In this document: in pieces, positions 16,271-30,803 of the stretch
Numbering within the stretch: the stretch's first letter is position 1
How the letters are laid out: the number at the start of each line of letters is the position of its first letter
Virus genome (UHGV): UHGV-0140727
Reading direction: 5' to 3' (one strand)
Length of the DNA: 30,803 nucleotides
Source of the DNA: a virus
Position numbers and translations under genes: made by a program
Notes under the pieces: model-generated
What the model saw: only the letters and a program-made list of their open reading frames with translations
What the model was told of the DNA's origin: nothing
The model's database searches: none

Positions 16271-16352
16271 ATTAAATCTTTTTAGAGAACTTCTAAGAAC
16301 CTAAGCAACAAGGTTCCACAACAAGCTGTAATAACCTTAGAAGCCCTCTAAA

Positions 16353-16527: not shown

Positions 16528-16615
16528 CGGTAAGTAAAGGAGTCGAACCCTCACCGTATCTCTACAGTGGCAACAGTTTTCAAGACTGTTTGGCTGCCAT
16601 TAGCCGCTACCTACC
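16528..16615 (-). tRNA. tRNA-Ser (anticodon UGA), type II
   Basis: 88 nt. Perfect anticodon stem ACAGT/ACTGT with loop CUUGAAA, long variable arm, T-loop TTCGACT, 7-bp acceptor with one G-U pair. CCA is not encoded. Confidence 0.65.
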
Positions 16616-16628
16616 CCTAATAAGACTT

Positions 16629-16711
16629 TGGCATGGGACGGAGGAGTTGAACCCCTTTGAAACGGTTTTGGAGGCCGTTGCTCATGCCTTAGAGTCTTAA
16701 CATCGTCCCAT
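16629..16711 (-). tRNA. tRNA-like, probable tRNA-Trp (anticodon CCA) with extra nucleotides between acceptor and D-stem
   Basis: Perfect 7-bp acceptor (ATGGGAC/GTCCCAT), CCA encoded, T-loop TTCAACT, anticodon loop CUCCAAA. About 10 nt lie between the acceptor and the D-stem where 2 are expected. Confidence 0.45.
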
Positions 16712-16848
16712 ACTATAATTCGAAGCTTACCCTGTTATCTCAACACTGTCAAGCTTCTTCTCAGATTATTTACATGTTCTGGAAAACATGAGATACAGAC
16801 CACCTCCCTACAGGAAGACCCGCTAAGGCCGTCTAAGTAATCTGCTAA

Positions 16849-17196
16849 CTAATACTTTGCATGTCTTACCCTATGGCAATTTGAACATAGCAAAACACAT
16901 TTGTCAAGTTCATCTTTTAGTTCTTGAGAGAACTTCAGACTTTTTCTATGACCAATGTTAAAATCTTTCTCTGAAGGATTCAAATGATGGAAGTCATACA
17001 CTGCTGGATGATACCTTTTACCACAATCATGACAAACCCCACCTTTGTACTCAATAGCTGAAAGTTTAAGTGCTCTTTGTCTTTCTATGGTTTGCTCATT
17101 AACACACTTTTTACAGTATGAATGAGTTCTCTTACCATCTTTCATGTAGAAATCATTTTCATCCTTGCTAAGTTTGCACCTAATACAAGTTTTCAT
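16849..17196 (-). CDS. HNH endonuclease (homing-endonuclease-like) embedded in the tRNA array
   Basis: N-terminal CxxC...CxxC zinc-finger-like cysteines, then the HNH signature (DFHHLNPSEKDFN ... CSNCHRVRH). ORF track start at 17247 overlaps a tRNA; the ATG at 17194-17196 has a GGAG ribosome-binding site 5 nt upstream, giving 115 aa. Confidence 0.75.
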   Translation of the reverse strand: MKTCIRCKLSKDENDFYMKDGKRTHSYCKKCVNEQTIERQRALKLSAIEYKGGVCHDCGKRYHPAVYDFHHLNPSEKDFNIGHRKSLKFSQELKDELDKCVLLCSNCHRVRHAKY

Positions 17197-17210
17197 GATT
17201 TCTCCAAAAT

Positions 17211-17292
17211 TGGTCGAGGCGGCAGGACTCGAACCCGCATACTCCACTTACTCGGTTAACGGCGGTTTAGAAGACCGCTGAGATACGCCCCG
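17211..17292 (-). tRNA. tRNA-like gene, anticodon unresolved (candidate loop CUUCUAA would give Arg UCU)
   Basis: Clean T-arm GCGGG-TTCGAGT-CCTGC, 7-bp acceptor with one G-U pair, CCA encoded. A perfect stem GCGGT/ACCGC carries loop CUUCUAA, but the remaining nucleotides do not give a canonical D-arm and variable arm. 82 nt. Confidence 0.4.
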
Positions 17293-17540
17293 TAATTATC
17301 TTTAAAGACTCTCTTAGAAAGCCCTTAGAGATGCCCACCTTATTAATCATACCGTGGGCTAGTACGCCAAATTCTTTGATGAGGGATTGGAAGACCTCAC
17401 TGGTGTTTAGCCTATCAAGCTACTGCCAGAAAAACATTGTCGTTTGCATTTATTTTAAATTTGCAAAATAGACGCTACGCAACGAAAACTAAGGTTACTA
17501 TAAAGTAGTCACATCTCAATGTCAACAACTTTATTGAAAT

Positions 17541-17615
17541 TGGTTGTAGGTGAGGGTATCGAACCCTCTTCTAACGGTTATCAGCCGTTTGCATTACCAT
17601 TTATGCTAACCCACA
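17541..17615 (-). tRNA. tRNA-Ile (anticodon GAU)
   Basis: Perfect D-stem GCAT/ATGC, perfect anticodon stem AACGG/CCGTT with loop CUGAUAA, T-arm GAGGG-TTCGATA-CCCTC, CCA encoded. Confidence 0.75.
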
Positions 17616-17617
17616 AT

Positions 17618-17694
17618 TGGAGGTTCAGATGGGAATCGAACCCACATTCATAGGGCTTATGAGACCCTTGCATTACCTTATCTGCGACTGAACC
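17618..17694 (-). tRNA. tRNA-Met (anticodon CAU; elongator or Ile2-type not distinguishable)
   Basis: Perfect acceptor (GGTTCAG/CTGAACC), anticodon stem AGGGT/GCCCT with loop CUCAUAA, T-loop TTCGATT, CCA encoded. G1-C72 pair argues against an initiator. Confidence 0.65.
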
Positions 17695-17698
17695 ATTT

Positions 17699-17774
17699 TG
17701 GTAGAAGTGGAGGGATTCGAACCCATCGCCTGTCAGATTAAAAGTCTGCCGCATCACCATTCTGCTACACTTCC
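17699..17774 (-). tRNA. tRNA-Lys (anticodon UUU)
   Basis: T-loop TTCGAAT, anticodon loop CUUUUAA, 7-bp acceptor, CCA encoded. Confidence 0.65.
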
Positions 17775-17916
17775 ATTAAATTATATTTGTAGATAAGCTA
17801 CCCAGACTTGCTTAAGGTCTGTAGCGATGTGTCTTTTCGGGTTAAATCTAGAATCTACCCTTCCACCTTTGTGGTCGCATACTCACAGGTAAGCTTAATA
17901 ACTTATCTACAAAGAT

Positions 17917-18057
17917 AATTACCAGACCGTTGTTTATCATCTTAAGTGCTACCATTACACCAACTCGACATCTGCCGAGTGAAGGAATCGAACCTTCGCC
18001 TTTTCTTTACCGGAGAAATAGATTGTTTAAGTTTTGCTGTAAACGGTCTTCTGTAAA
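17917..18057 (-). ncRNA. Structured RNA element A: conserved bulged closing helix enclosing a permuted tRNA-like module (Y-RNA-like candidate)
   Basis: Sense strand: 5' TTAC-AGA-AGACCGTT (plus 18040-18055) pairs with 3' AACGGTCT-G-GTAA (plus 17920-17932). Between them, in order: T-arm GAAGG-TTCGATT-CCTTC (plus 17971-17987), a 7-bp acceptor-like hairpin closed by a 4-nt loop (plus 17953-17970), and a D-arm-like GTGTAATGGTAGCAC (plus 17936-17952). No anticodon arm. Confidence 0.45.
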
Positions 18058-18063
18058 TTTGTT

Positions 18064-18145
18064 GAGCCAGACCAAGTTTTAAATTTTTCAAAATTAAATT
18101 GGCTTGAAAATATCATACGTACTTGCTGTATTTGGTCTTCTGCTC
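18064..18145 (-). ncRNA. Structured RNA element B (paralog of A, C, D)
   Basis: Same helix architecture with compensatory changes: outer GAGC/GCTC, 5' AGA opposite 3' G, inner AGACCAA/TTGGTCT, conserved TACAGCAA at the start of the enclosed loop. Confidence 0.4.
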
Positions 18146-18203
18146 CTTTAAAGGATACTCGTAAGAACCCTTTAAGGGAGGGGCTAAATAGCCCTCTCAA
18201 AAT

Positions 18204-18281
18204 TGGCGGTTACGAAGGGATTTGAACCCTCATCATCTCCCGTGACAGGGGAGTATTTTAACCAAATTAAACTACATAACC
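18204..18281 (-). tRNA. tRNA-Asp (anticodon GUC)
   Basis: Perfect anticodon stem CTCCC/GGGAG with loop CUGUCAC, T-loop TTCAAAT, acceptor with one G-U pair, CCA encoded. Confidence 0.75.
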
Positions 18282-18286
18282 TTTAT

Positions 18287-18374
18287 TGGTGTGCCGTGTA
18301 GGAGTCGAACCTACCGAGTCTCAATGACAAGGGATTTACAGTCCCCACCGCTACCATCTACGGGATAACGACAC
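18287..18374 (-). tRNA. tRNA-Tyr (anticodon GUA), type II
   Basis: 88 nt. Anticodon stem GGGGA/TCCCT with loop CUGUAAA, long variable arm, perfect T-stem GTAGG/CCTAC, 7-bp acceptor with one G-U pair, CCA encoded. Confidence 0.7.
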
Positions 18375-18383
18375 ATTTAAATT

Positions 18384-18460
18384 TGGCGGTTAGTCAGGGA
18401 TTCGAACCCTGTGCCATTCGCTTAACAGGCGACCGCACATACCTTATGTGCTTCCTAACC
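18384..18460 (-). tRNA. tRNA-Asn (anticodon GUU)
   Basis: Perfect D-stem GCAC/GTGC, anticodon loop CUGUUAA, perfect T-arm CAGGG-TTCGAAT-CCCTG, CCA encoded. Confidence 0.7.
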
Positions 18461-18470
18461 ATGTTTAGTA

Positions 18471-18543
18471 TTACCAGACCGTATCTTTCAATTTTTTCCG
18501 CTAAAAATTTAATAAATATTGCTGTAAACGGTCTTCTGTAAAT
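18471..18543 (-). ncRNA. Structured RNA element C (paralog of A, B, D)
   Basis: 5' strand is identical to element A over 24 nt (TTTACAGAAGACCGTTTACAGCAA). It pairs with 3' ACGGTCT-G-GTAA (plus 18471-18482): outer TTAC/GTAA, inner AGACCGT/ACGGTCT, enclosing about 40 nt. Confidence 0.4.
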
Positions 18544-18544
18544 T

Positions 18545-18621
18545 TGGAGGCGGGTGCAGGAGTCGAACCTGCCGATACCATGCTAATGAGACATGTGAGA
18601 CGCCCTTTCTCTATACCCGCA
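18545..18621 (-). tRNA. tRNA with anticodon CAU (Met, initiator or Ile2-type not resolved)
   Basis: Perfect T-arm GCAGG-TTCGACT-CCTGC, D-stem GAGA/TCTC, anticodon loop CUCAUUA (U at position 37 is unusual), 6-bp acceptor with a 1-72 mismatch, CCA encoded. Confidence 0.55.
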
Positions 18622-18629
18622 ATTCTTAA

Positions 18630-18709
18630 TGACCAGACCAAATCTCTTCTATGTCCGATTTACCTTCAGATGAATAAGATTAAGTTTGCTGTAATTGGTC
18701 TTCTGTCAA
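18630..18709 (-). ncRNA. Structured RNA element D (paralog of A, B, C)
   Basis: Outer helix TGAC/GTCA, 5' AGA opposite 3' G, inner AGACCAA/TTGGTCT, conserved TACAGCAA at loop start, enclosing about 50 nt. Confidence 0.4.
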
Positions 18710-18712
18710 AAC

Positions 18713-18790
18713 TGGCGTTCCAGAAGGGATTTGAACCCTCAAATATCCACTTTGAAAGAGTGGTGACTTTACCATTTTGTCTACTGGAAC
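18713..18790 (-). tRNA. tRNA-Glu (anticodon UUC)
   Basis: Perfect acceptor (GTTCCAG/CTGGAAC), perfect anticodon stem CCACT/AGTGG with loop CUUUCAA, T-loop TTCAAAT, CCA encoded. Confidence 0.75.
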
Positions 18791-18797
18791 ATTAATT

Positions 18798-18874
18798 TGG
18801 TCTCTGTTGGAGGACTTGAACCTCCGGCCTTACCGCCCCAAACGGAACGCTCTACCAAGCTGAGCTAAACAGAG
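18798..18874 (-). tRNA. tRNA-Pro (anticodon UGG)
   Basis: Perfect acceptor (CTCTGTT/AACAGAG), perfect D-stem GCTC/GAGC, perfect T-arm GGAGG-TTCAAGT-CCTCC, anticodon loop UUUGGGG with G37, CCA encoded. Confidence 0.7.
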
Positions 18875-19039: not shown

Positions 19040-20455
19040 TTACCAGATATAACGGTCAATCATTACTGCTTTGAGCATTACGCTGATTGGGTCAAACTTC
19101 TCACCACCAAGCAGAGCTTTTAAAGTGGCTGGAGAGAAACCAGATACCATTGCTACACCGTTATCCTTAACAGATACTTCGCAAGTACCGTTACGGTTTG
19201 CTAAGTACCAGAATACCAGTTGTGGCATTTCGTATCCAGCTTTTTTGTACTTACTCTGGATTGCTTCAAAGTTTGTACGACCGTTAGCTCCATCAACCTG
19301 ATTGAACTCCATATCGGAGAAGATGATAAGCTTACTTGGCATATCTTTCTGAGTCAAGTTGTTTCTTTTACCTGTCTCAAGAATACGGTCAAAAGCTGCT
19401 TGTAAGTTAGTTGAGCCATATTCAACGTGTCGCATCACCTGACGATGACGGTTTCGTAAATCACCACTCAGTTCGATGAAGTGAGGGTTTGTTGAATAAA
19501 CCATTAACTCATTCTTAAAGCAACCTGTATTGCGTTCTGCTACATACAAGGCAAGTGATACACCAATATCCAGAGCAGTAATGGAGCCAAAATTCACCCA
19601 AGACATTGAACTTGATACATCAGACATACACAAGATGTTTTCACCTTCTGCCATCCAGTTTGGTAGTGCTTTCCACTGCTCATTAGCAACATCTGCATTA
19701 CCATACTTGACAGATTTAATCACATCGTATGGGTAAACAGCACCAGCGTTAATCTTAGTCTCACCTTTTGATAAGGACTCGATGTAAGCTTTGTAACGCT
19801 CTCCATCTTTACGGTTAAACAGTTTTTGGTAACGTGCAGCAGCAAGTGAAGGAATCTTACTGTAGTCAATCTTACCAAACTCATTAGCAGAGATTTTTTG
19901 CTCAACTGTATCAGATAGTGCAGACAACAGTGTGCGGTACTCTTTCTCACTCAAGTTGGCAAACTTGCAGAAACGTTTTACAAACTGCTTATGACGTGGT
20001 TTGACTCGTGGTAACCACTTAGCCGCCAAACCTGCTGTTGCAGGGTCTAGTAATGCTGCTTCTAAATGTTTGAAGGCATCTGTCTCGAAACGAGTACCTA
20101 CGAAGATTTTGAAGTCATCAAAACGACCAAGTTCTGCAATCTTATCCATAATGCGAAGAACCTGCGTAGACTCTAAAACTTTGTCTTCAATTGCTTGAAG
20201 CAAAACAGTTCTGAAGGCTTTACGCTCACCCATACCTTCTCGTACATCTCGCATATGAAGCAAAATACGAACTGCAACATCAACATCCTCACGCAAAGCT
20301 TTGTAGAACAGGTCTGGTAAGATTTCTACGTTGCTACGGCTTGAACCAGCAGCTTTGTAAAAGTCTACAAGAGCAGACATTGATGAAGTATGGTTTACAG
20401 CACCATTTTCAGTTCGACCTGCATGAAGGTACGCATGTTTAAATAATTCGCTCAT
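19040..20455 (-). CDS. vWA-domain protein with a helical N-terminal domain; Ro60/Rsr-like (TROVE + vWA) architecture, DUF2828-like
   Basis: 471-aa ORF. The C-terminal half has the vWA MIDAS signature in order: DxSxS (LCMSDVSSSMS), a downstream GSTN threonine, and LIIFSDME. The N-terminal ~250 aa is predicted helical. The TROVE assignment is inference from architecture and context, not from a search. Confidence 0.55.
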   Translation of the reverse strand: MSELFKHAYLHAGRTENGAVNHTSSMSALVDFYKAAGSSRSNVEILPDLFYKALREDVDVAVRILLHMRDVREGMGERKAFRTVLLQAIEDKVLESTQVLRIMDKIAELGRFDDFKIFVGTRFETDAFKHLEAALLDPATAGLAAKWLPRVKPRHKQFVKRFCKFANLSEKEYRTLLSALSDTVEQKISANEFGKIDYSKIPSLAAARYQKLFNRKDGERYKAYIESLSKGETKINAGAVYPYDVIKSVKYGNADVANEQWKALPNWMAEGENILCMSDVSSSMSWVNFGSITALDIGVSLALYVAERNTGCFKNELMVYSTNPHFIELSGDLRNRHRQVMRHVEYGSTNLQAAFDRILETGKRNNLTQKDMPSKLIIFSDMEFNQVDGANGRTNFEAIQSKYKKAGYEMPQLVFWYLANRNGTCEVSVKDNGVAMVSGFSPATLKALLGGEKFDPISVMLKAVMIDRYIW

Positions 20456-20487
20456 ATTTTACTCTCTTCTCTCATTTGTTGTTTGAT

Positions 20488-20523
20488 GTGACAGACTTTA
20501 GAGCAACTTTGTATAGTCTGTCA
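20488..20523. promoter_or_regulatory. Perfect 9-bp inverted repeat between two minus-strand genes
   Basis: tgacagact (20489-20497) and agtctgtca (20514-20522) separated by a 16-nt loop, lying between the stop of the 123-aa ORF and the start of the vWA-protein ORF. No flanking U-run, so it is not a classical terminator. Confidence 0.4.
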
Positions 20524-20536
20524 ACACCTTTTAAAA

Positions 20537-20908
20537 TTATTTTTTGAGAGTTGCTACAGCAGAGAACGTTGGTTTGTTATCTGTCTGTTGTTGACCACCA
20601 TTATCAGGAGTCTTCTTAGTGTCTGCTGCAAGTGCTTTCATCTCACCTGCTGAGTGAGTAAAGATAGTTTTACCTACCTCAATCATGCTCTTGATGGTTA
20701 CGTCGTCTGTGTTTAACCCGAACTCTGCAAGCTTAGCAGCGTCCCTTGTAACAATCGCCTCAAACAACTTTGCAGCAAACTCAGCAGAATTATCAATGGT
20801 CAGTTGAGCTTTTACAAGTGAGCTTTTGTTACGAGAGCCTTTTGGTCTTCCAGATGGGTTTCCAGATTGGCCTTTTTTAAACTGGCCTTTGTTTGTTCTG
20901 TTTTTCAT
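20537..20908 (-). CDS. Hypothetical basic protein with N-terminal GNPSGRPKG motif (DUF5681-like; possible DNA-binding or small-terminase-like)
   Basis: 123-aa ORF with a Lys/Arg/Gly-rich N-terminus (KGQFKKGQSGNPSGRPKGSRNK). First gene of the minus-strand unit, next to the divergent intergenic region. Confidence 0.5.
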   Translation of the reverse strand: MKNRTNKGQFKKGQSGNPSGRPKGSRNKSSLVKAQLTIDNSAEFAAKLFEAIVTRDAAKLAEFGLNTDDVTIKSMIEVGKTIFTHSAGEMKALAADTKKTPDNGGQQQTDNKPTFSAVATLKK

Positions 20909-21157
20909 TGGTATGCCTCTTATAAGACCTCTTAAAAGGCTTTTAAGATAAAAGATAGATATCCAGAAAGATATCTGTTTAAATAGCCTTTTTAGAGGAA
21001 CCTTTTAAGTTATCTTCTAAGTATTTATAAGCCTACACCTTGTCAAGTACTTTGTCAACAACTTTTTTAACTTGCAATAGTTCTTGACTTGTTGTATGGA
21101 TTACTGTACCATCTTACTTAAAGCTGTAGGTCTGCCTTGTTCTACAAAGGAGACTTA
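20909..21157. promoter_or_regulatory. Divergent intergenic control region (candidate promoters and operator palindromes)
   Basis: 249-bp AT-rich gap between divergently oriented gene blocks. It holds a perfect palindrome AGATATC-cagaaa-GATATCT (20953-20972), a CTTAAAAG-GC-TTTTAAG palindrome (20930-20946) and several TTGTCA/TTGACT -35-like hexamers (21041-21091). Promoter calls are not precise. Confidence 0.4.
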
Positions 21158-21319
21158 ATGAGAAAATCAAATAAACCGAAGAAAGGTAAGAATACCAATC
21201 ACTGTAAGGAATCAAAAAGGGTAGAGTTAATCTACTATTCATCCTCTGAAATTGGTCTGTACCTGTTCTTTCAAAATTACAGAAGACAAGAGGATTATCT
21301 ATGTGTAGTTCCCAATTAG
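21158..21319 (+). CDS. Hypothetical small basic protein
   Basis: ATG at 21158 is preceded by AAAGGAG with a 4-nt spacer. The ORF track's longer version uses a TTG at 21137. Lys-rich N-terminus. Confidence 0.4.
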   Translation: MRKSNKPKKGKNTNHCKESKRVELIYYSSSEIGLYLFFQNYRRQEDYLCVVPN

Positions 21320-21534
21320 AAATCGCAGATATTATAGATTTATATCAAACTGCAAAGAGTCATGGCTATATAACCTCAATTGGAAAGAATAGTCACTATG
21401 ATGCTTTGACTGGAATGTATTTCAGGGCAATGGCTCAATCTAGTGAACAACACTTAATGGTTTCTTCCAGTGAGTTTACTTCGTTTCTCTATTGCAGCAA
21501 AATTATAAATCGCAGGAGAACTGAAAAATGTTAA
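21301..21534 (+). CDS. Hypothetical protein
   Basis: 77-aa ORF with an AAGAGGA ribosome-binding site upstream, overlapping neighbours by a few nucleotides. Confidence 0.4.
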   Translation: MCSSQLEIADIIDLYQTAKSHGYITSIGKNSHYDALTGMYFRAMAQSSEQHLMVSSSEFTSFLYCSKIINRRRTEKC

Positions 21535-22118
21535 CAGTAAGTTTTAATTACAATAGTGATGGCTCTGTATCAATTAATTCGCCATATGCAAATGACCTAC
21601 TTAAAGAGCTAGTCAATCAGTGTGATAGAGGTCTTCACTATGTTCAAAATTCTTTTAAACAGAAGACTATTGCTAATAACTTGATGCGTGTAACAGTAAC
21701 GGCATCGAATCCAAATTATGACTTTGATAGTGAAAGTCCGTACTCATTAGTTGCGCTTGGAGAGAGCAGCCAATTCAAACTTGTTTGCCACGACTCAGAA
21801 ACATTCCTTAAGGTCTTTTCCAACCTTATCCATAATAATAAGTACAGCTACGTTGATGGTAGTGTAAATTTCTACCCAGCAAACTATACATGTTTGTTGG
21901 TTGATAATATGAGAAAAAGTAAACAAGAACCTACAGAAATTTCATTTGATGTGAACTCTAGTCCAGACGCAGAAACAAGTAAGAACTTTGATATGAGTTA
22001 CGCATTGTCACTCAGTAAGAAATCCGAGTTCATTGATTATGTCAATGGATTTGGTTTTAAGTTTGATGAGAGTATGAATCTTAAAAAACTTAAGAACCTA
22101 CTTAAGACCAAAGCTTAA
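21528..22118 (+). CDS. Hypothetical protein
   Basis: 196-aa ORF with an AGGAGAA ribosome-binding site upstream. Confidence 0.5.
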   Translation: MLTVSFNYNSDGSVSINSPYANDLLKELVNQCDRGLHYVQNSFKQKTIANNLMRVTVTASNPNYDFDSESPYSLVALGESSQFKLVCHDSETFLKVFSNLIHNNKYSYVDGSVNFYPANYTCLLVDNMRKSKQEPTEISFDVNSSPDAETSKNFDMSYALSLSKKSEFIDYVNGFGFKFDESMNLKKLKNLLKTKA

Positions 22119-22165
22119 GTGTGAATAGGGGCTGATGCCCCTTTAACTATTTATAAGGATATTTA

Positions 22166-22537
22166 ATGAAAGCTAAGAGTGCAAAAGACTTTTATTGCTT
22201 CCTACAATCCTATATCAATTCCGTGCAAAATGGTGAAAGGTACAACCTTAATGATGTTATCCCAACACCTTTGACATGGAGACTCAGTAAATGGCCTGAA
22301 GAAGATATTACACCAACAAGCGAACAACGCACCTACAAACCTGAAATCAATATTCCAGACTCTGAGAATCTGTTATATCCAATGTTCCATATCGTTGGAC
22401 TTGGAAGATTCCTTATGGATATCCAGTATGTAATTGGTAAAGGTTATAAGGTTAAAGGTATTGTTGTTGGTGATGTATCTCCGCATCACAAAGGTTATTT
22501 TAGACTAAACGCACATTTAGAGGCTAAAAAGAAATGA
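22166..22537 (+). CDS. Hypothetical protein; stand-alone paralog of the N-terminal domain of the downstream Ig-like protein
   Basis: 123-aa ORF. It aligns by eye with residues 1-105 of the next ORF (KAK..DF..F...I..V..G.RY......P.TWPE.DI.....Y.P....P.S..LLY......DLQY.I..GK). Stop overlaps the next start (ATGA at 22534-22537). Confidence 0.55.
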   Translation: MKAKSAKDFYCFLQSYINSVQNGERYNLNDVIPTPLTWRLSKWPEEDITPTSEQRTYKPEINIPDSENLLYPMFHIVGLGRFLMDIQYVIGKGYKVKGIVVGDVSPHHKGYFRLNAHLEAKKK

Positions 22538-23667
22538 TTAAAGCAAAGACTTACCCAGACTTCAAAGAGTTTGTGAAGGGTTTCATTGCAAATGTAAAGG
22601 CTGGTAAGAGATATGATTTTAGAACATATCAAGAGGCTATTTTACCACTTACCTATAGTTCATATTGGCCTGAAGCTGATATTGCAGAAGTTGAGAAGTT
22701 TGACTACAAACCAGACTACAAAGTTCCATTTAGTGATGAATTGCTTTACAGTGTTGGTGCACAGATGAGAACTGCTGATTTCTTCATGGATTTGCAGTAT
22801 GCAATCATCAATGGTAAAGATGTTGACACAATTTACTGTGAATGGTTGGCAAGAGTTAAGCCGTTCTCAATGTTGAATGCTAAGTTGAAGGATGCTATTA
22901 AGCCACCAGCAATTACTCAGCAACCAACAGGTCAAACAGTCAATGAGGGTGGCACACTTACTCTAAGCATTCTAGCAACTAACGCCACTGGATATCAGTG
23001 GAAGAAGGATGGTGAGGACATCCCTAGTGCCAATTCTGCAACTTACACAAAACAGTCAGTAGCACCTTCTGACGCTGGTTCATACACTTGTGTTGTATCT
23101 GGAGAGGGTGGAACAAGTGTTACCTCAGATGCAGCAACAGTGACTGTGAACGCACTACCTGTGATTACACAACAACCTTCTAGCCAGACCATCAATGAGG
23201 GTGGAAACATCAACTTGGAAGTGACTGCAACAGGTGCAACAGGTTATCAGTGGAAGAAAGATGGCTCTGACATTCCTTCGGCTACAGATGCAACCTATAG
23301 TAAGTCTGGTGCTCTGCCAGCAGATGCAGGTTCATACACTTGCGTTGTAACAGGTGCAGGGGGTTCTGTTACTTCTAGCCCTGCAACAGTTACTGTGAAT
23401 GCACTTCCTGTCATCACTCAACAGCCAACCAATCAAGAAATCAATGAAGGTGAGACCTTAACGTTGAATGTTGTGGCAACAGGTGCAACAGGTTATCAGT
23501 GGAAGAAAGATGAGGAAGACATCCTCGATGCAACTACTGCAACCTACACCAAAGAAGGAGCAACCGCTGCTGATGCAGGAAGCTACACCTGTGTAGTTAC
23601 TGGCGCAGGTGGCTCTGTAACATCTAATGCAGCAACAGTTACAGTTAATCCAGCAGGGGAGGCATAA
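22534..23667 (+). CDS. Ig-like repeat protein (N-terminal domain plus three tandem Ig-like domains)
   Basis: 377-aa ORF with three ~83-aa repeats, each carrying ITQQP..Q.(I/V)NEG, ATGATGYQWKKDG, DAGSYTCVV.G.GGSVTS and ATVTVN(A/P), an I-set/Big-like Ig-fold signature. Confidence 0.6.
   Translation: MIKAKTYPDFKEFVKGFIANVKAGKRYDFRTYQEAILPLTYSSYWPEADIAEVEKFDYKPDYKVPFSDELLYSVGAQMRTADFFMDLQYAIINGKDVDTIYCEWLARVKPFSMLNAKLKDAIKPPAITQQPTGQTVNEGGTLTLSILATNATGYQWKKDGEDIPSANSATYTKQSVAPSDAGSYTCVVSGEGGTSVTSDAATVTVNALPVITQQPSSQTINEGGNINLEVTATGATGYQWKKDGSDIPSATDATYSKSGALPADAGSYTCVVTGAGGSVTSSPATVTVNALPVITQQPTNQEINEGETLTLNVVATGATGYQWKKDEEDILDATTATYTKEGATAADAGSYTCVVTGAGGSVTSNAATVTVNPAGEA
22912..23655 (+). repeat. 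Three tandem ~249-bp in-frame DNA repeats encoding the Ig-like domains
   Basis: Near-identical nucleotide blocks, for example caacaggtgcaacaggttatcagtggaagaaagatg at about 23229 and 23478. Confidence 0.6.
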
Positions 23668-24131
23668 TGCAACTCTCAAGAAAAGGTTTAGAAGCTATTA
23701 AGTTCTTTGAAGGTCTTAAGCTAGAGGCTTACGAAGATTCTGCTGGAATCCCCACAATTGGGTATGGGACTATCCGTATTGCTGGTAAACCTGTTAAGAT
23801 GGGTATGAAGATTACCGCTGAACAAGCTGAACAGTATCTTCTCGCAGATGTTGAAAAGTTCGTTGCAGCAGTGAACAAAGCCGTCAAGGTTCCAACTTCT
23901 CAGAATGAGTTTGACGCACTTGTAAGTGAAACATACAACATTGGTATCACAGCTATGCAGGACTCCACATTTATCAAGCGCCACAACGATGGTAATAAGG
24001 TAGGTTGTGCAGAAGCTATGCAGTGGTGGAACAAGGTTACAATCAAAGGTAAGAAGGTCACTTCAAACGGCCTGAAAAACAGACGTAGAATGGAAGCTGA
24101 CATTTATCTTGACAGTGTATACCCAAAGTAA
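23667..24131 (+). CDS. Endolysin, lysozyme (glycoside hydrolase family 24, lambda R / T4 e type)
   Basis: 154-aa ORF with the GH24 N-terminal catalytic signature EGLKLEAYEDSAGIPTIGYGT (Glu, Asp, Thr spacing). Start overlaps the stop of the Ig-like gene (ATAATG). Confidence 0.8.
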   Translation: MQLSRKGLEAIKFFEGLKLEAYEDSAGIPTIGYGTIRIAGKPVKMGMKITAEQAEQYLLADVEKFVAAVNKAVKVPTSQNEFDALVSETYNIGITAMQDSTFIKRHNDGNKVGCAEAMQWWNKVTIKGKKVTSNGLKNRRRMEADIYLDSVYPK

Positions 24132-24140
24132 TATCTTCAT

Positions 24141-24168
24141 AGGCTCCTTCGGGAGCCTTTTTTATTTT
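24141..24168 (+). terminator. Rho-independent terminator after the endolysin gene
   Basis: aggctcc-ttcg-ggagcct: perfect 7-bp GC-rich stem on a tetraloop, followed by TTTTTTATTTT. Confidence 0.75.
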
Positions 24169-24182
24169 CTAAGGAGAAAACT

Positions 24183-24581
24183 ATGAAACTTTGGGCTAGT
24201 GACTTTGGAACTTTTAAGTACACTCGTAATGGCTCGCTTGTACGCATTGTCGGGAACAATGTGGTTTCAAGAGGTGACAAGGTATATACACGGTTTACTG
24301 TAGAGCTTGTTGAGTTGTCACCTATTGAGTCTGTGAACAATGGCCTGTTCAAGTTTGAGACTTACAATGTCAACGAACATGGACAATTCAACCCTCTTGG
24401 TGAAAGTGGACTTGATATTATTTCAGAGCACCCATTGACAAAAGAGCAACTTGCAGGTTACTATAAATCTGTTCTGGAAAGGCAGTTAGCAACACATGAA
24501 CAAGAAGCTAACTACCATCTACAGCATTGCGAAACTTTAAGAGCAAAAATCGAACAAGCAGAGAGAGGTTTTTATGAATAA
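24183..24581 (+). CDS. Hypothetical protein
   Basis: 132-aa ORF after the terminator, with AAGGAGAAAA upstream of the ATG. Confidence 0.5.
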   Translation: MKLWASDFGTFKYTRNGSLVRIVGNNVVSRGDKVYTRFTVELVELSPIESVNNGLFKFETYNVNEHGQFNPLGESGLDIISEHPLTKEQLAGYYKSVLERQLATHEQEANYHLQHCETLRAKIEQAERGFYE

Positions 24582-24972
24582 AGATGTTAGAGATATTCAA
24601 GTAAAGGTTGACACATTTGGTCATGATGGTCGAGAAGACATCGGTTTTGCCGACGCAGTAATATTCAAGTGCAACGGAGATTTATTCCTTCGTTTTACAG
24701 GGTCTGGAAGCACCCTTCATCGGGTGCGAGATGATGAAGATGGCTGCCCTGTATTTGGTTGGTTTGACACAGAGTTTCCTCTCTACGTAATCCACTATCC
24801 AGATGGTGGAGAAGACTGGACAACTCAATCAATCTTTGATGAGCTTAATGGTGTTCCAGTTGAGCAAGAAGAGCAAGAGCCTGTTGAACTTACCTTCACT
24901 TTTATCAAAGAAGAGAAAGTAGGTGACTTGTCAGTAACTGAAGCAATTCAAGTCTCACAGGTGATTCGTTAA
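24574..24972 (+). CDS. Hypothetical protein
   Basis: 132-aa ORF with 8-nt overlap to the upstream gene. Confidence 0.5.
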   Translation: MNKDVRDIQVKVDTFGHDGREDIGFADAVIFKCNGDLFLRFTGSGSTLHRVRDDEDGCPVFGWFDTEFPLYVIHYPDGGEDWTTQSIFDELNGVPVEQEEQEPVELTFTFIKEEKVGDLSVTEAIQVSQVIR

Positions 24973-25265
24973 TGAGTAAAGTACAGGTTGTTTTCCCTAT
25001 TTGTGACTTCTCACTAGAGCGTGAACTTGACCTGTACGAAGAAATTACTGACGAAATTATCTGGTCTGTTGTAGAAGAGGCTATCAAGAAGCTGTATGGT
25101 GGCCTCTTAAACCCATCAAGTAAGAAGTTAAGCACTAAGCAAGTAGCTGACCCATATGTTTCATACGATGCCTACAACAAGCCTTTTGAGAATACCTGCT
25201 TTGACCTTATGGTAGGTAATAACAAAGTCAACTATTTCTTCGTCAGAGAGTTTAACGATGAGTAA
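24972..25265 (+). CDS. Hypothetical protein
   Basis: 97-aa ORF with start/stop overlap. Confidence 0.45.
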   Translation: MSKVQVVFPICDFSLERELDLYEEITDEIIWSVVEEAIKKLYGGLLNPSSKKLSTKQVADPYVSYDAYNKPFENTCFDLMVGNNKVNYFFVREFNDE

Positions 25266-25602
25266 GCTCCATGTCACAGTGTACAAAAACTTCTCAGATA
25301 TAAAAGAGTCTTTAACAAATAAGCTTGACTTACAACGTAAAAGACTCTTTTTAATGTACGACATAGACAACTACGACCATCCTAAAGAGTTTAACTATAA
25401 AGATGGTACAAAGGTCGTTGAATTTGAAGATTCTGTAACGGTATATGTAAAATATGACTTACCAGCAAAGTACATAGGGATGTTAGAGTACTACATATTC
25501 AAACATACAGGTATGCGTGGTGAAGCTGTTAAGATATCTTCTATAGAAGTTTTTGAGAAACCTAACACACAACTTAAAAAGTATTTAATGAGGAAACTGT
25601 AA
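25258..25602 (+). CDS. Hypothetical protein
   Basis: 114-aa ORF with overlapping junctions on both sides. Confidence 0.45.
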   Translation: MSKLHVTVYKNFSDIKESLTNKLDLQRKRLFLMYDIDNYDHPKEFNYKDGTKVVEFEDSVTVYVKYDLPAKYIGMLEYYIFKHTGMRGEAVKISSIEVFEKPNTQLKKYLMRKL

Positions 25603-26183
25603 TGTCCGAAGAGCAACAGAATATCACTCCACAAGTAACACTGGTACAACATTTTGGAAATATTGAAGGTTGTATTGCACTTTTTCAACCAAGTATCAAC
25701 TCTCCTGCAAAAGTTTGCAAGTTGACTATGAATGTTAACAACATCAGTGTTTGCCTTGTTGAAGAAGTTCAATATTTCAAGTTCAATGACAGAGAGGTTG
25801 ATGCTGCACTATTGAAGTATCGAGCAAACCTCGAAAAAGATATTGACCACAAAGAACTTGTAACATTGTTTGGCGACCTTCACAAGCTTCTTGAAAAGGT
25901 TATGAAGCGTACATACTACATGAACAATGGTTCAATCATCACCACTTTGATTTCACCATGTATTTCAGAGCCAATTTTAACTGATGACGGTGGATACTAC
26001 GTGGTAGCATCAGCAGACTCTGATTGGTGGATGAAGAACACAGCACTTAAGACAGTGATTGAGGCTATCCGCGAACATATCCCTTCATTCAGCCCGTGGA
26101 AAGGTAAAAGTGATGATTTCATTGCATTGTTGAGTGAAGAGAGTAACAAGCGCAGTGCATTACTGCCTAAAAAATACTCTTGA
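25602..26183 (+). CDS. Hypothetical protein
   Basis: 193-aa ORF, start overlapping the upstream stop. Confidence 0.5.
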   Translation: MSEEQQNITPQVTLVQHFGNIEGCIALFQPSINSPAKVCKLTMNVNNISVCLVEEVQYFKFNDREVDAALLKYRANLEKDIDHKELVTLFGDLHKLLEKVMKRTYYMNNGSIITTLISPCISEPILTDDGGYYVVASADSDWWMKNTALKTVIEAIREHIPSFSPWKGKSDDFIALLSEESNKRSALLPKKYS

Positions 26184-26255
26184 CCGAGTATACAATATTG
26201 ACTATGATGGGAGCTATCGAGAGGTAGTTCCCTTTTTAGTTTCTGGAGAGTAGAT

Positions 26256-26801
26256 ATGGCTAAAGTGAAAGAACACGATAAAATTATTTTGTATGTTAAA
26301 CAGAATCCTTCAAAGAGTGTTGAGGCTGTTGTAACACACATCTCACACAATGGTACAGTTTATTTCCGACCACTGAAGAATTTAGACTTTGACACAACAC
26401 CAAACCACACATTCAGTACTTCTGCAAGACTGTGTGCAGGTACTGTATACTCAACTGCTGAGATTGAGTCCTTATCTTTCACGGGTGCTTACAAAAACTT
26501 TATAGGGATTGCTCTAAAGGACTCTGAAGAATCTTTTAAATTTTTCATGGAGACTAATAAAGGTTGCTACACACATGTTATGCCAGTCTATAAGAAAGTT
26601 GACACAGAGCTTACCAGTAAGTGCGAAGAAATTAGTAGTGACCTGAAGGAGCGTAAAACAGCTATTCAGAATGCCATTTACATCATTGAGAGGAACCATT
26701 TAGAAGTTCTTTTCAGAGATATGCTAAAAGCAGGGTTTACTCCAAACGAAATTACAAGAGAAACACAACGACAGTTCAGAAACGCTATGGTGAAAGAATG
26801 A
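26256..26801 (+). CDS. Hypothetical protein
   Basis: 181-aa ORF with GGAGAG upstream of the ATG. Confidence 0.5.
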   Translation: MAKVKEHDKIILYVKQNPSKSVEAVVTHISHNGTVYFRPLKNLDFDTTPNHTFSTSARLCAGTVYSTAEIESLSFTGAYKNFIGIALKDSEESFKFFMETNKGCYTHVMPVYKKVDTELTSKCEEISSDLKERKTAIQNAIYIIERNHLEVLFRDMLKAGFTPNEITRETQRQFRNAMVKE

Positions 26802-27016
26802 AAAAGTTAACTACAGTTGAAGATTACTACAAACTTTCCCTGTTAGAACAGTATCGTAGAAGCCAGAATATCAGAAAATGCTACGGTAAACACGCTGAAG
26901 GTGACTTTTACCGTTGCTATGATGCAGATTTAAAAGGTGTAACACCTAGAGGTAAAGTCCTGCAAAGACTTGTTGACCTTGAGTGGAACAAACGATTGAG
27001 AGGGGTTGGAAAATGA
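26798..27016 (+). CDS. Hypothetical small protein
   Basis: 72-aa ORF with ATGA-type overlap to the upstream gene. Confidence 0.4.
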   Translation: MKKLTTVEDYYKLSLLEQYRRSQNIRKCYGKHAEGDFYRCYDADLKGVTPRGKVLQRLVDLEWNKRLRGVGK

Positions 27017-27516
27017 TTTACGAAGAAAGATACAAAATAGATTACCAGAAGACTGGTCATCATACTTCACTAAGAGTAACCAAACCAAATGGGGATACCG
27101 GTATCATAGCACATTTTGGTGGTGATTATTGGTACGGTACAGGTTGCTTTGAAGGCTACACTCAAGAATACTTGAAAGCTTTCTACAGAGACTTTACAAA
27201 TGACTACAACAGGGTTGTTGACGAAAAGAACAAGTGTATTAAGCATGAACACCATGCCAGAGGCTGCCTAAGTATTGTTATGGTACTGACGTTCTTCTTA
27301 GCAATGTTACTGACAGTATCAGCAATCAGTTGTATAGCTCAAGACTTGACCATTACACAGATTACTGCAAAGGTACATGATGTTTGGTACTTGTATGCTG
27401 TTCCTTTAGCTGGTATCATCATCTCACTAATGAGGTTCAGAGTTCATAAGAAACGACTTAAGGACTCTGAGGTTAAACTTGAAGAGGTAAGTAAAGAATG
27501 CAACCTACAATTATAG
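26983..27516 (+). CDS. Hypothetical membrane protein (two predicted C-terminal transmembrane helices)
   Basis: 177-aa ORF. Hydrophobic segments LSIVMVLTFFLAMLLTVSAISCI and WYLYAVPLAGIIISLM follow a soluble N-terminal domain. Confidence 0.45.
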   Translation: MEQTIERGWKMIYEERYKIDYQKTGHHTSLRVTKPNGDTGIIAHFGGDYWYGTGCFEGYTQEYLKAFYRDFTNDYNRVVDEKNKCIKHEHHARGCLSIVMVLTFFLAMLLTVSAISCIAQDLTITQITAKVHDVWYLYAVPLAGIIISLMRFRVHKKRLKDSEVKLEEVSKECNLQL

Positions 27517-27592
27517 CTGTATGTGTTCGTTTTGCAATCGCCGAAATGATTAACAAGGCAATCTTAAAAGATGCCTATGGAGAGACTAAGTA

Positions 27593-27817
27593 ATGATTAA
27601 GACACCTGTACCAATTTTTGGATTTCCTTCTATAGAAGAGTTCAAAGTTTATCTTGACAAAAACTTCTACAACGAGCAGCCTGTTACTTTGCTGAAGAGT
27701 GACTTATCAGAGCTTCTTGATATGGTTATCAAGGCAACTTCTGAGAAGGAGCCTGAACAGAAAGCTGAGAAGAAGACTAGTAAGAAATCCGATAAGAAGA
27801 CTGAAAAGTCTGAGTAA
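27593..27817 (+). CDS. Hypothetical small protein with a Lys/Glu-rich C-terminal tail
   Basis: 74-aa ORF; C-terminus EKEPEQKAEKKTSKKSDKKTEKSE. Confidence 0.4.
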   Translation: MIKTPVPIFGFPSIEEFKVYLDKNFYNEQPVTLLKSDLSELLDMVIKATSEKEPEQKAEKKTSKKSDKKTEKSE

Positions 27818-27868
27818 TAACTTAGGGGTTACTTGATAGCCCCTTTGTAGAACTTAGAAGGTAGCGAA

Positions 27869-28297
27869 ATGAAAGAGCATGTAGGTAAAGAGCTTGACAT
27901 TGTAGATGCAAAGACACAGAGGCATATAGCTACTGTTAAGTTTCTTGGAATCAGTGATATGAGTGATTTTTATCCTCTCAACTGCATAGTGCTAGACAAA
28001 TTTGAGGTTTGTGGTATTAATTTTAATGAGGATAACTTTATAAGCTTTGATAAGGACGGTTTCTGGCGTGGTAAGAACCATCCTCAAGCAAATGAGTTTG
28101 ATATGCGTCTAGTGATACCACAAAAAGGTAATCCACAAAACGTAAAAGATATCCTTGTGGAAGCCTATGCAGAAGGTATAATAGATGTTGTGCATGATGT
28201 TGAAAAAGCTTTAAAGCTTATTATGCCACATTTAGAATCTGGAAAGCTGACTTTAGAGATGCTTAATAGGGTTATTCGGAGAGCTTATGAAAATTAA
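27869..28297 (+). CDS. Hypothetical protein
   Basis: 142-aa ORF with AGGTAGCGAA upstream of the ATG. Confidence 0.5.
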   Translation: MKEHVGKELDIVDAKTQRHIATVKFLGISDMSDFYPLNCIVLDKFEVCGINFNEDNFISFDKDGFWRGKNHPQANEFDMRLVIPQKGNPQNVKDILVEAYAEGIIDVVHDVEKALKLIMPHLESGKLTLEMLNRVIRRAYEN

Positions 28298-28751
28298 AGA
28301 AGTAGTGCAAAGAGCAATGCTTGACAATTCTACTAAAGATGAGATGTACACAGAAATTTGTGATAAGTTGAACTGCTCAAGACATGCTGCTAAGGTTCTT
28401 GTACATTGTTTTATTTGGGAATGCTCAGAAGCCTATATGAAACACGTAGCTTTTGAGAGTTCTCATTTACTCGGTGATGTAAAAATAGGTGTAGCACTAA
28501 AAGAGCCTGAGATGAAAACAGTACCTAAGGTTGGTAATGTGTATAAACTAAAAAATTTTATTACAGGCGAGATTGTTGCAGAAGGTGAAGTGCAACAGGT
28601 TTATCATGATGGTAAATATCTGTTTAAGATATTCGAGTATGATAGTCGTTACAGACACTTATGCGGTATTACATTTTTAGTTTCAGAGGATGACCTCATC
28701 AAGAACAATAGTAATAAATTCGCAGTACCAGAATATCAAGTTTTACGATAA
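28287..28751 (+). CDS. Hypothetical protein
   Basis: 154-aa ORF overlapping the upstream gene by 11 nt. Confidence 0.5.
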   Translation: MKIKEVVQRAMLDNSTKDEMYTEICDKLNCSRHAAKVLVHCFIWECSEAYMKHVAFESSHLLGDVKIGVALKEPEMKTVPKVGNVYKLKNFITGEIVAEGEVQQVYHDGKYLFKIFEYDSRYRHLCGITFLVSEDDLIKNNSNKFAVPEYQVLR

Positions 28752-29313
28752 TGGTGTGATATCTATGGAAAAAGATAACTTAAAAGAAGTTGAAGGTAAC
28801 TACCTAGTACTTGACTGGAGTGATGTTCGAGAAGCACTCTCCGAAGAAAATCTTGACTGGTTCGAACAAATTATCTTTGCAGTACGGCATAACAGAGAAG
28901 TCGAAAATGGTAAAGAACCACTTGAAGGAATCTTTGTAGAAAGGTCTTATCCGTTCTATGAAGACACTTTGCAGAAAGTTAAAATGTACTTTAAACAGAA
29001 GAACCGTAAAGTGGTCACTATGGTATCTCTTGGTGGGCAGAGTATGTCTATTATGGAAGATATCAACCCTAAGAGACCGAGTAAAGGTGTCTGTATAAAA
29101 ATCACAGGTCATGAAGAGTATATCTCAGTGGATGATTTTAGTATATTCTGTAATGGTTCTGCTGTCTTTAATGGGTTTCACTATGATATCCGAGTGTACC
29201 CAATCAAGGGAGATGCTGTTATGATGCAGATATTCGATAACAACAATGGATTCACTCATTTTTATCAGACAACTAAGTCATCATTGAAGACAGTTTTAGA
29301 AAGCCTGATTTAA
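28690..29313 (+). CDS. Hypothetical protein (start uncertain; alternative ATG at 28765)
   Basis: 207-aa ORF in the track that overlaps the previous gene by 62 nt. The in-frame ATG at 28765-28767 would give a non-overlapping 182-aa product. Confidence 0.45.
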   Translation: MTSSRTIVINSQYQNIKFYDNGVISMEKDNLKEVEGNYLVLDWSDVREALSEENLDWFEQIIFAVRHNREVENGKEPLEGIFVERSYPFYEDTLQKVKMYFKQKNRKVVTMVSLGGQSMSIMEDINPKRPSKGVCIKITGHEEYISVDDFSIFCNGSAVFNGFHYDIRVYPIKGDAVMMQIFDNNNGFTHFYQTTKSSLKTVLESLI

Positions 29314-29324
29314 AATATCTTAAG

Positions 29325-29348
29325 AGCCTCCTTAATTGGGGGCTTTTT
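29325..29348 (+). terminator. Rho-independent terminator closing the plus-strand gene block
   Basis: agcctcc-ttaatt-gggggct: 7-bp stem with one G-U pair, followed by TTTTT, 12 nt after the last stop codon. Confidence 0.65.
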
Positions 29349-29389
29349 ATTGAGTAAAATTTACGAAATTTATATTTTTTATAAAATTT

Positions 29390-30803
29390 TATCGGTTGTC
29401 CCAACCTCTGGGTCACCATCATATGTGAATAAAATATCTATCCTTCTTAACAACCTTCTTAATCTTACTCTCTATATAGTTATATAGTACTATATAGTAT
29501 CTTAGTAACTATCTAGTGGTCTTAATAGCCCCACTGTATAAGCCTTCTAAACACTCTTCTGACAAGCCTTCTTAACAGCCTATACAACCACCTTAACCAT
29601 CTCTCTACATCCTCTTAGAAGCTCCTATACACCTCTTAATCTCTAGGTTAGCTATGACACTCTCTATAGGTTTTCACTAGGTATTACTAAGCCTCTATAT
29701 AGACTGTTTTAACAAACTTAACAGGAATATCTTTACAGACCTTATCTCACAAGGTCTAACACGGTACTAACAAGGTATCTTATAAGCCTGTTATTACCTG
29801 TATTTTTAAAAGGCTGTATAGGTAATTATTCAGAATTTTAAAATTTTTATAAAATAGGACTATCAAGTCATTTTTTAGGGTCTTTGAAGGAACTGAAAAA
29901 TATCTGTCTAGGATGTATATCTGCTTGGTAGCCCTTAACAGCTCCCTTACAAGTACTTTGCAAAATTTTAAAATATCCTTAACAATCTCTTAACAGTTCT
30001 CACATCTTCTTAACAACTCTTCAAAGGTCTTAACAGATTCTTAACAGAACTAACAAGGATGTAACAAGTTCTTAACAGTCGATACATGGTCTTTACAGAG
30101 TCTTAACAGATGACTAACAAGAGCTAACAAGTTAATTTTTAAGAGTTATTTTGTTAAGATAATTAACAAGTTCCTAACAAGTATTTAATCTTTTTAACAA
30201 GCTATTAACATGGTCACTACTTCTTTCTTATCGTTCCCTTTCCTTTCTTAATTGGTATTGTTACCAATCCCTAGTGATTCTTTAAACATACCTCTTAAAA
30301 GCTCTCTATAGCTCTTTATAAGCTCTTTTAAGTCTCTTCCTAGTATCTACCCCCCAACTGTACAGATAGCTCTTTATAGGGCTTTACAGGAGTTTTTAAG
30401 GCTATGTCAAAGACTCTTACAAGGATTTTACGTGGTCTTAACAGAGATTTAACAAGGGGCTAACAAGTTGCTAACAAGTGCCTTAAAAGCATAACTATGT
30501 AGGGTTTGTTAAGAAATTGTTAAGAAAATGTTAAGGGGGCTAGCATTTACGTAACTTTATAGCCTCTTTTACGTAACTTTTAAGCTACTTCAAAGTAACT
30601 TTAAAGCCCCTATAACATACTTTTTAGTGACTATCAAGGGGTTGTTTAGTTATTCACAAGAATACTAATGAGATGATAAAGCTTACACCCTTATAAGATT
30701 CTTTTAAGGCTCTAGGAAGCTTTATAAAGGGCTTTTTAGGGTGAGTTAATGCAATCCCTTAAGTTAGGTTGATAAGGCTGTTATAGAGCTTTATAGAGCG
30801 TTT
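29390..30803. repeat. Repeat-dense non-coding region with iteron-like motif families
   Basis: No ORF in any frame. More than 25 copies of YTTAACAR(G) / CTAACAAG, densest at 29960-30215 and 30430-30480; inverted copies TGTTAAG at 30505-30535; a second family (G)CTCT(T)TATAG at 29630, 29695, 30300-30335, 30375, 30781-30803; three tandem TATATAGTA units at 29474-29500. Confidence 0.6.

Follow-up and report, generated by a model that had tools for sequence, protein, structure and literature searches.

Phased repeat arrays within the terminal repeat of a Felix O1-like phage: predicted binding sites for terminus cutting and packaging

The virus genome UHGV-0140727, considered here as one strand of 30,803 nucleotides (hereafter the window), closes with a long stretch devoid of genes and crowded with short repeats. 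What this stretch is, and what would read its repeats, are the questions raised by the locus. An earlier note on this DNA had proposed three answers, namely a replication origin with iterons, an array of binding sites for a phage DNA-binding protein, or a control region next to a terminal repeat. The stretch is established here, through its homologues, as the genome-terminus (concatemer-junction) region of a Felix O1-like phage. The overall explanation retained, with moderate confidence, is that of a genome terminus whose repeats are predicted binding sites serving terminus cutting and packaging.

Positions 29300-30803 and 20000-29400 matched ~255 Felixounavirus records at 85-97 % identity (megablast), identifying the window phage as a Felix O1-like myovirus; identity of the window to Felixounaviruses was 91-96 %. 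In this group, a 608-bp direct terminal repeat (DTR) was mapped in UAB_Phi87 by Bal31 digestion, which yielded two sensitive fragments, and by run-off sequencing (Bardina et al., PMC4837284, Fig. S1). Its reverse complement aligned from first to last base with 29925-30532; these ends were taken from the supplement of that paper, as the GenBank record opens in the tRNA region and not at the DTR. SeKF_63 displayed an exact 613-bp repeat at both ends of its record and NBEco005 a 651-bp repeat beginning and ending on the same bases, both mapping to 29927-30540. These two records end ...GGGCTACC, while that of pEP20 opens at GGTAGCCC and closes ...ATCTGCTT. The DTR of the window phage is accordingly placed at 29927-30540 (614 bp); it would be found at both virion DNA ends and only once per unit in the concatemer or in an assembly. 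PhageTerm DTRs were reported for other Felixounaviruses (613 bp in Ro111lw and 581 bp in Pr103Blw; three 'DTR' reports overall), and the DTRs of UAB_Phi87, Ro111lw and Pr103Blw share locus, boundaries and length class with the window segment.

As the ends of UAB_Phi87, SeKF_63, NBEco005 and pEP20 agree, both repeat clusters lie inside the DTR, against its boundaries. The earlier proposal of a control region adjacent to a terminal repeat was therefore correct as to the terminal repeat and too modest as to its place, the clusters being part of the DTR itself. Since the locus is the already mapped Felixounavirus terminal repeat, the observation as such is explained. The literature searched on Felixounavirus DTRs gave their length or sequence only and mentioned no repeat arrays, inverted cut element, conservation pattern or reader protein. 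The terminus locus is known in close relatives; its internal anatomy, the probable small terminase and the likeness to ArcA sites described below appear to be undescribed.

Between 29390 and 30803, YTAACA was found in 25 copies on the plus strand and in four inverted copies (29 in total), in agreement with the more than 25 copies in both orientations noticed earlier. Seven copies of CTAACAAG were also present, and the interleaved (G)CTCT(T)TATAG family was recovered as 8 + 3 copies of CT[ACT]TATAG. Over 29314-30803, both strands considered, YTAACAR occurred 26 times against 2.1 +/- 1.5 in 500 dinucleotide shuffles (maximum 8), a 12-fold excess, and CT[ACT]TATAG 11 times against 0.6 +/- 0.9. 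The density of YTAACAR was 17.5/kb in this interval and 0.96/kb in the rest of the window. Neighbouring copies on the same strand were most often separated by exactly 11 bp (13 cases), followed by 20 bp (four cases).

The copies clustered at 29935-30210 and 30438-30534, near the positions previously indicated, and ~23 good YTTAACAR copies were located within the DTR. Their orientation is inward from either DNA end and their density is highest next to the cut sites, the nearest copy lying 6-8 bp inside each cut and the arrays reaching 100-290 bp inward. Array A (29935-30210, plus strand) is composed of ~18 YTTAACAR copies spaced by 9-11 or 20 bp, with additional degenerate copies (TTTACA, CTTACA, GTAACA) and one inverted copy at 30152. 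In an alignment of the window with 17 other Felixounaviruses, each array A copy was intact in 76-100 % of these relatives. Array B (30438-30476, plus strand) consists of four copies at exact 11-bp spacing (CTTAACAG, TTTAACAA, GCTAACAA and GCTAACAA) and array C (30506-30534, minus strand) of three inverted copies (TTGTTAAGAAA TTGTTAAGAAA ATGTTAAG), which end 6 bp from the right cut and were intact in 88-100 % of relatives. The DTR centre (30215-30430) is occupied by a second repeat family (CTCTCTATAG, CTCTTTATAAG, CTCTTTTAAG and GCTTTACAG) in a phase of ~10 bp and is the least conserved DNA, with identities of 0.62-0.82 in the 30214-30313 bins.

Both boundaries of the DTR displayed the same element. 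The left one, TGTATATCTGCTT/GGTAGCCCTTAACA (29913-29940, plus strand; the slash marks the cut here and below), would be cut between 29926 and 29927, and the right one, AAATGTTAAGGGGGC/TAGCATTTACGTAAC (30526-30556, plus strand), between 30540 and 30541. On the opposite strand the right element becomes TGCTA/GCCCCCTTAACA and repeats the left element in inverted form (inverted repeats I2/I3). The mature 5' ends would be GGTAGCCCTTAACA on the top strand (from 29927) and GCCCCCTTAACA on the bottom strand (from 30540); in the uncut junction, both are preceded by TGCTW, giving TGCTT/GG on the left and TGCTA/GC in the complement on the right. The common cut element is TGCTW/G-N2-4-CCC(CC)-TTAACA, inverted at the two boundaries. 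These 27-30 bp were invariant in 18 Felixounavirus and three Mooglevirus sequences, while the rest of the non-coding DNA differed by up to 25 %; such invariance lends indirect support to fixed, sequence-defined ends. In Kolesnikvirus (from Erwinia and Salmonella) the boundary elements were still recognisable, 437 bp apart, the left one reading TGTATATCTGCTTAGTGG.

The conservation of the repeats was that expected of functional sites. Within the alignment, the six core bases were 97.8 % conserved, compared with 85.9 % for spacers and other DTR positions (circular-shift p ~0.0025). All 21 Felixounavirus and Mooglevirus DTRs displayed 17-20 forward and 3-6 inverted copies despite ~25 % divergence. 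The order of parts in Kolesnikvirus is the same (cut, forward array, centre, inverted triple, cut) in non-coding DNA that is otherwise unalignable; TGTTAA-TGTTAA-TGTAAA stands at the array C position and YTTAGAAG repeats replace the second motif family. Relatives without arrays at this locus, which would have spoken against the earlier note, were thus not encountered: every relative examined carries them. Counted in 500-bp bins along the complete SeKF_63 genome, copies were most numerous at the termini, where the top three bins were located (15, 14 and 10 copies; median 0), and this restriction of the arrays to the termini indicates that the motif is not a dispersed operator. A search of IMG/VR for further relatives with a conserved 15-mer returned mostly chance matches and ~8 useful contigs. 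The repeats are most likely protein-binding sites that would organise terminus cutting and packaging. The suggestion of a protein-binding array thereby gained indirect support from the 11-bp phasing, the purifying selection on the core and the copy number and layout common to three genera of Ounavirinae; its other half, a phage protein as reader, is less secure, as the reader may be a host protein instead.

As one element is found in inverted orientation at the two boundaries, the packaging nuclease would nick opposite strands 614 bp apart. Each nick would leave a 5' end starting just past TGCTW, and the repeat would then be duplicated as the 3' ends are extended with strand displacement, each packaged genome receiving a full copy at both ends (the T7/Watson scheme). 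In this scheme, a multimeric protein may assemble on the phased repeats, mark the junction and position the nuclease. The nuclease and motor expected to cut at the DTR boundaries is the large terminase subunit (11205-12821, minus strand; PHROG 979, E = 1e-233), which is adjoined by the portal gene. The likeliest reader of the repeats would be the phage's own small terminase, possibly together with a host factor.

A candidate for this small terminase is a DUF5681 protein of 123 amino acids (20537-20908, minus strand; Pfam PF18932). In distant metagenomic phages, a gene for a DUF5681 homologue was found directly upstream of the large-terminase gene and overlapping it, and further similar contexts were seen. 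Directly upstream of the large-terminase gene is the standard position of small terminases. In the window the two genes are separated by a Ro60-like gene and 25 tRNA genes. Across the family only a basic N-terminal motif, FKKGxSGNPxGRPKGSxNK, is invariant; its GRP core is similar to an AT-hook, and the predicted model places this motif on a disordered arm followed by long helices. A ring of DUF5681 subunits binding sites one helical turn apart would be a plausible reader. The genome paper of Felix O1 described the phage as being without a small terminase, and the DUF5681 protein is probably this previously unrecognised subunit. A 66-amino-acid open reading frame (ORF) just upstream of the large terminase was also considered for the role and was rejected, as it matched one PHROG of unknown function and no Pfam family.

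The genes lying between those of the DUF5681 protein and the large terminase were recorded as well. The 25 tRNA genes form a single cluster (13251-18874, minus strand), preceded by the gene of a 471-amino-acid Ro60-like RNA-binding protein (PHROG 850; 19040-20455, minus strand). In a published study of Bas63, a related phage, the Ro60-like protein was linked to the countering of a defence system.

Several points weigh against the explanation by terminus cutting and packaging. Six repeat copies lie outside the DTR, and the short-repeat arrays beside the terminal repeat of T7 are not known to be necessary for packaging. The run-off ends of UAB_Phi87 (29925/30532) differ by 2 nt and 8 nt from those of the PhageTerm-style records (29927/30540), and one Kolesnikvirus, SunLIRen, was called 'headful' by PhageTerm. 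As to the reader, the assignment of DUF5681 is based only on gene order in distant phages; a fold search with the DUF5681 model gave no significant match, and no TTAACA arrays were found near the terminase genes of the distant DUF5681 phages.

The alternative that survives best concerns the identity of the reader. The repeats may be sites for ArcA-P, an oxygen-sensing host response regulator of the OmpR/PhoB family that is active at low oxygen, as in the gut, replacing sites for a phage protein or existing besides them, in which case ArcA-P would coat the DTR; this is regarded as possible but rather doubtful. An ArcA-P site comprises two to five TGTTAA direct repeats whose centres are 11 bp apart (Park et al. 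2013, PMC3798270), and the minus strand of the window reads TGTTAA direct repeats with precisely this architecture. A position weight matrix was built from 115 E. coli ArcA boxes defined by chromatin immunoprecipitation sequencing (Park et al. 2013, Table S3). In the 1.49-kb region it returned 23, 14 and 6 matches at >=9, >=12 and >=15 bits, against 3.1, 0.9 and 0.1 in shuffles, while the rest of the window contained 0.24 matches/kb at >=12 bits. At least two TGTTAA direct repeats with 11-bp spacing and at least 9-10 bits, as expected of an ArcA site, are thus present, the best reaching 23.0 bits. The array C triple, TTGTTAAGAAATTGTTAAGAAAATGTTAAG, 6 bp from the right end, scored 22.8 and 23.0 bits, above the maximum of 21.9 among the natural boxes (n=115), and the degenerate copies TGTAAA and TGTTAC are the commonest natural ArcA variants. 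Densities of ArcA matches were alike (6.6-11.1/kb) in the non-coding regions of the three phage genera, whose hosts all have ArcA; the second repeat family varies between genera, as would be expected if it alone co-evolved with a phage protein. The phage also carries anaerobic ribonucleotide reductase genes, and arcB disruptions were among the Salmonella mutations conferring resistance to Felix O1 (PMC8744999).

Other features fit ArcA-P less well. These phages grow well in air, a condition in which ArcA-P is low. A T5-like phage showed the arcB phenotype too; it was ascribed to RpoS, and arcA itself was not reported (PMC8744999). The spacers of most copies (GANNC) are less A/T-rich than those of natural boxes, and C at position 1 and G at position 7, rare in ArcA boxes, are common here. 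Natural sites comprise two to five repeats and overlap promoters; here there are ~30, and the overlap with sigma-70 promoters typical of natural sites was not seen in the region, which displayed no promoter excess and whose flanking genes point towards it. Conservation across genera would equally be accounted for by a conserved phage protein, and the literature searched contained no paper that connects ArcA with phage termini.

If ArcA-P did bind, it could act as an architectural cofactor of cutting and packaging, as a shield bound to the ends, or be titrated from its regulon by hundreds of phage copies. For Bas63 it was remarked in print that the phage seems to be without a RecBCD inhibitor. 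A virulent enterobacterial phage would then carry ~30 high-quality predicted ArcA-P sites in its end repeat, including a triple outscoring all E. coli boxes, a proposition put forward tentatively and from sequence comparison. It would wire the low-oxygen signal of the host into events at the phage genome ends, with ArcA-P as a terminase cofactor, as a cap protecting the entering DNA, or soaked up to the point that the ArcA regulon is de-repressed.

In SeKF_63 (L062/L063), three phased TGTTAA repeats were observed at 40256-40284, just past a tail-fibre gene, as the only multi-repeat ArcA-like site away from the termini; this site lies outside the window. Ribonucleotide reductase genes of both kinds, aerobic (NrdAB-type) and anaerobic (NrdD/NrdG-type), are present in the same genome (L063; 65831-69513 in the coordinates of the record), which fits growth in low-oxygen hosts. 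A scan of IMG/VR for three TGTTAA at 11-bp spacing was dominated, among the matches listed, by AT-rich chance matches. Also among the matches listed were contigs of unrelated, uncultivated viruses displaying intergenic TTAACA-N5 blocks followed by inverted TGTTAA-N5 blocks (L113 7250-7560; L115 10850-11000; L158 2245-2320; L106 650-800; L081 8670-8850), of which L113 additionally carries GGGGGCTAGC, as at the right cut site of the window. As these contigs match no cultured phage, the scan cannot separate binding by ArcA from binding by a phage protein.

The second alternative, a replication origin in which the repeats are iterons of an initiator and the AT-rich stretches unwinding elements, is considered improbable. 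It would account for dense phased repeats in both orientations within a long non-coding region, for the AT-rich 34-nt repeats at 29354-29387 and 29822-29855, and for two TTATTCACA 9-mers fitting a relaxed DnaA box. ArcA-P is reported to bind oriC, and an ArcA-controlled origin is conceivable. The units, however, are 11 bp long with a core of 6-8 bp, compared with iterons of 17-22 bp in lambda, P1 and plasmid origins. No initiator-like gene adjoins the region, the neighbours encoding small proteins of unknown function and the primase/helicase and polymerase genes lying ~35-50 kb away. The DnaA-like 9-mers are not conserved, half of the relatives displaying TGTGAACAA, and their number in the window (8 against 4.6 +/- 2.0 expected) is within chance. 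GC skew, put forward earlier as a check for an origin, gave no indication of one: the cumulative skew tracks transcription polarity only and turns where that polarity switches. Arrays that mirror each other about the DTR also suit DNA ends better than a unidirectional origin. The iteron origin first envisaged found no support in unit size, in an adjacent initiator or in conserved DnaA boxes; an origin as such would be compatible with the terminus identity, which is established.

Slightly less probable still is a role in transcriptional control or as a non-coding RNA, the repeats being operators for promoters that fire into or out of the DTR. TTAACA differs from the -35 hexamer by one mismatch, there are weak promoter-like matches such as 29360-29387 and 29946-29974 (both on the plus strand), and a promoter that reads into the right terminal repeat of T7 is implicated in the processing of its concatemers. 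Promoter-like matches were nevertheless not enriched (7 against 5.5 +/- 2.3), there is no terminator inside the region, and Rfam gave no family in it, the sole match being sub-threshold and located on the flanking terminator; no tRNA was found either. Matching motifs upstream of genes elsewhere, which the earlier note would have had searched for, were absent from the complete SeKF_63 genome. Both flanking gene blocks read towards the region and each closes with a terminator, so that nothing would be left downstream to control. Small or unusual genes were rejected: nothing exceeds 49 amino acids, and the tiny 'hypothetical proteins' annotated here vary between records.

The non-coding stretch around the DTR was delimited as follows. 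It begins at 29314, directly after the stop of the last ORF (28690-29313), and the longest ORF within or overlapping 29314-30803 is 49 amino acids, none reaching 60 in any frame. The absence of ORFs reported previously was thus borne out, with the start moved from 29390 to 29314 and the length from ~1.4 kb to ~1.7 kb, as the stretch passes the window end and continues for ~220 bp in relatives. In annotated relatives, the genes on the far side lie on the opposite strand and are transcribed towards the gap, which therefore separates convergent gene blocks. The rightward block is closed by a Rho-independent terminator (29328-29350, plus strand; a stem-loop and T run, 28-50 bp past the last ORF), annotated at the matching place in wV8, KhF, AYO145A and Moogle. 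A 'StbAB binding site' annotated in XTG1 was irrelevant, being an 11-bp feature within a coding gene ~7 kb away.

The unique flank beside the DTR at one physical genome end (29314-29926) is without ORFs and contains six scattered YTAACA copies and both copies of the AT-rich 34-nt repeat. Its mean identity to the 17 relatives was 0.93, with blocks at 0.97-1.00. The best-conserved non-coding block holds the tandem units signalled earlier at 29474-29500, found here as three TATATAGT units at 29472-29499 and identical in 15 of the 17 relatives. These units, which belong to the second motif family, contain a perfect palindrome, CTATATAG, with related palindromic versions (CTCTATAG/CTATATAG) at 29662, 29695 and 30304. 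The second unique flank starts at 30541 and runs through 30803 to the stop codon of the first leftward gene, ~220 bp past the window. It displayed three 22-bp units (30544-30606), further copies of the CTTTATAG/CTTTTAAG family and no YTAACA between 30541 and 30803, and its conservation was lower (0.65-0.97 by bin).

Left of the DTR, at 29856-29880, lies AGGACTATCAAGTCATTTTTTAGGG, an invariant IHF-like block that departs from the IHF consensus at a single base. On each outer side of the DTR a copy of GACTATCAAG-N6-TTTTAG is present (29856-29880 and 30627-30649), the left one being invariant in 16 of 17 relatives; a match to the IHF consensus in the right copy (30632-30644) was not conserved in relatives. 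Salmonella IHF (himA/himD) mutants were reported to be resistant to Felix O1 (PMC8744999).

Inside the DTR, a 22-bp palindromic insert, AATTGGTATTGTTACCAATCCC, was found at 30250-30271 as a presence/absence polymorphism, 12 of 21 related DTR regions being without it. The remaining nine carried it in either orientation and at different positions, namely +151, +206, +232, +255, +324 and +343 relative to the DTR start and, in two cases, beyond the DTR. Its behaviour is that of a very small mobile insert, and it accounts for part of the DTR length range of 568-658 bp.

Felix O1-like phages are widely used against Salmonella and E. coli in biocontrol and therapy and for typing these bacteria. Arbitrary opening points are found in many GenBank records of these phages, and the literature searched credits them with no small terminase. 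Ends tied to the conserved TGCTW/G... element would provide a simple rule for orienting and annotating these genomes and a guide for designing packaging-competent constructs, and a concrete candidate for the small terminase is available in the DUF5681 protein. With cut sites that mirror each other, the staggered-nick model, long assumed for the regeneration of terminal repeats, becomes open to direct testing in a second phage group, unrelated to the first. Binding of ArcA-P, if true, would be an uncommon instance of an environmental sensor of the host being used by a lytic phage at its DNA ends and would bear on phage performance in the anaerobic gut compared with aerated laboratory cultures.

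Among known systems, the terminus most resembles that of T7, for which a terminal repeat, short-repeat arrays (SRL/SRR) and a staggered-nick/fill-in model are said to have been described by Dunn and Studier in 1983 and by Chung and Hinkle in 1990. Common traits are a short non-permuted DTR, phased short-repeat arrays at the repeat boundaries, non-coding surroundings and a terminase-processed junction. As in a T7-type DTR, the same sequence is found at both ends of the homologues, and the window is homologous over the full mapped DTR including its boundaries. The arrays of T7 (7-bp units) nevertheless lie outside its 160-bp repeat, whereas those of the window are mostly inside the 614-bp repeat; early promoters of T7 read inward from the ends, whereas the gene blocks here read outward, towards them; and the two termini share no sequence similarity.

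Repeated phased elements beside a terminase cut are likewise encountered at lambda cosB (three R elements bound by gpNu1 and an IHF site beside cosN) and at pacL/pacR of SPP1, and the window displays such elements directly beside its cut sites. Lambda differs in producing 12-nt cohesive ends from one symmetric nick site, compared with two sites 614 bp apart here, and in having three cosB repeats compared with ~30. Natural ArcA boxes of E. coli are similar to the repeats in half-site, tolerated variants, 11-bp spacing and tandem multi-repeat sites; the window differs from them by an order of magnitude more repeats, in both orientations, away from promoters and on the DNA ends of a virulent phage. 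For a host protein of this kind acting as an architectural cofactor at a phage terminus, IHF at lambda cos would be the precedent.

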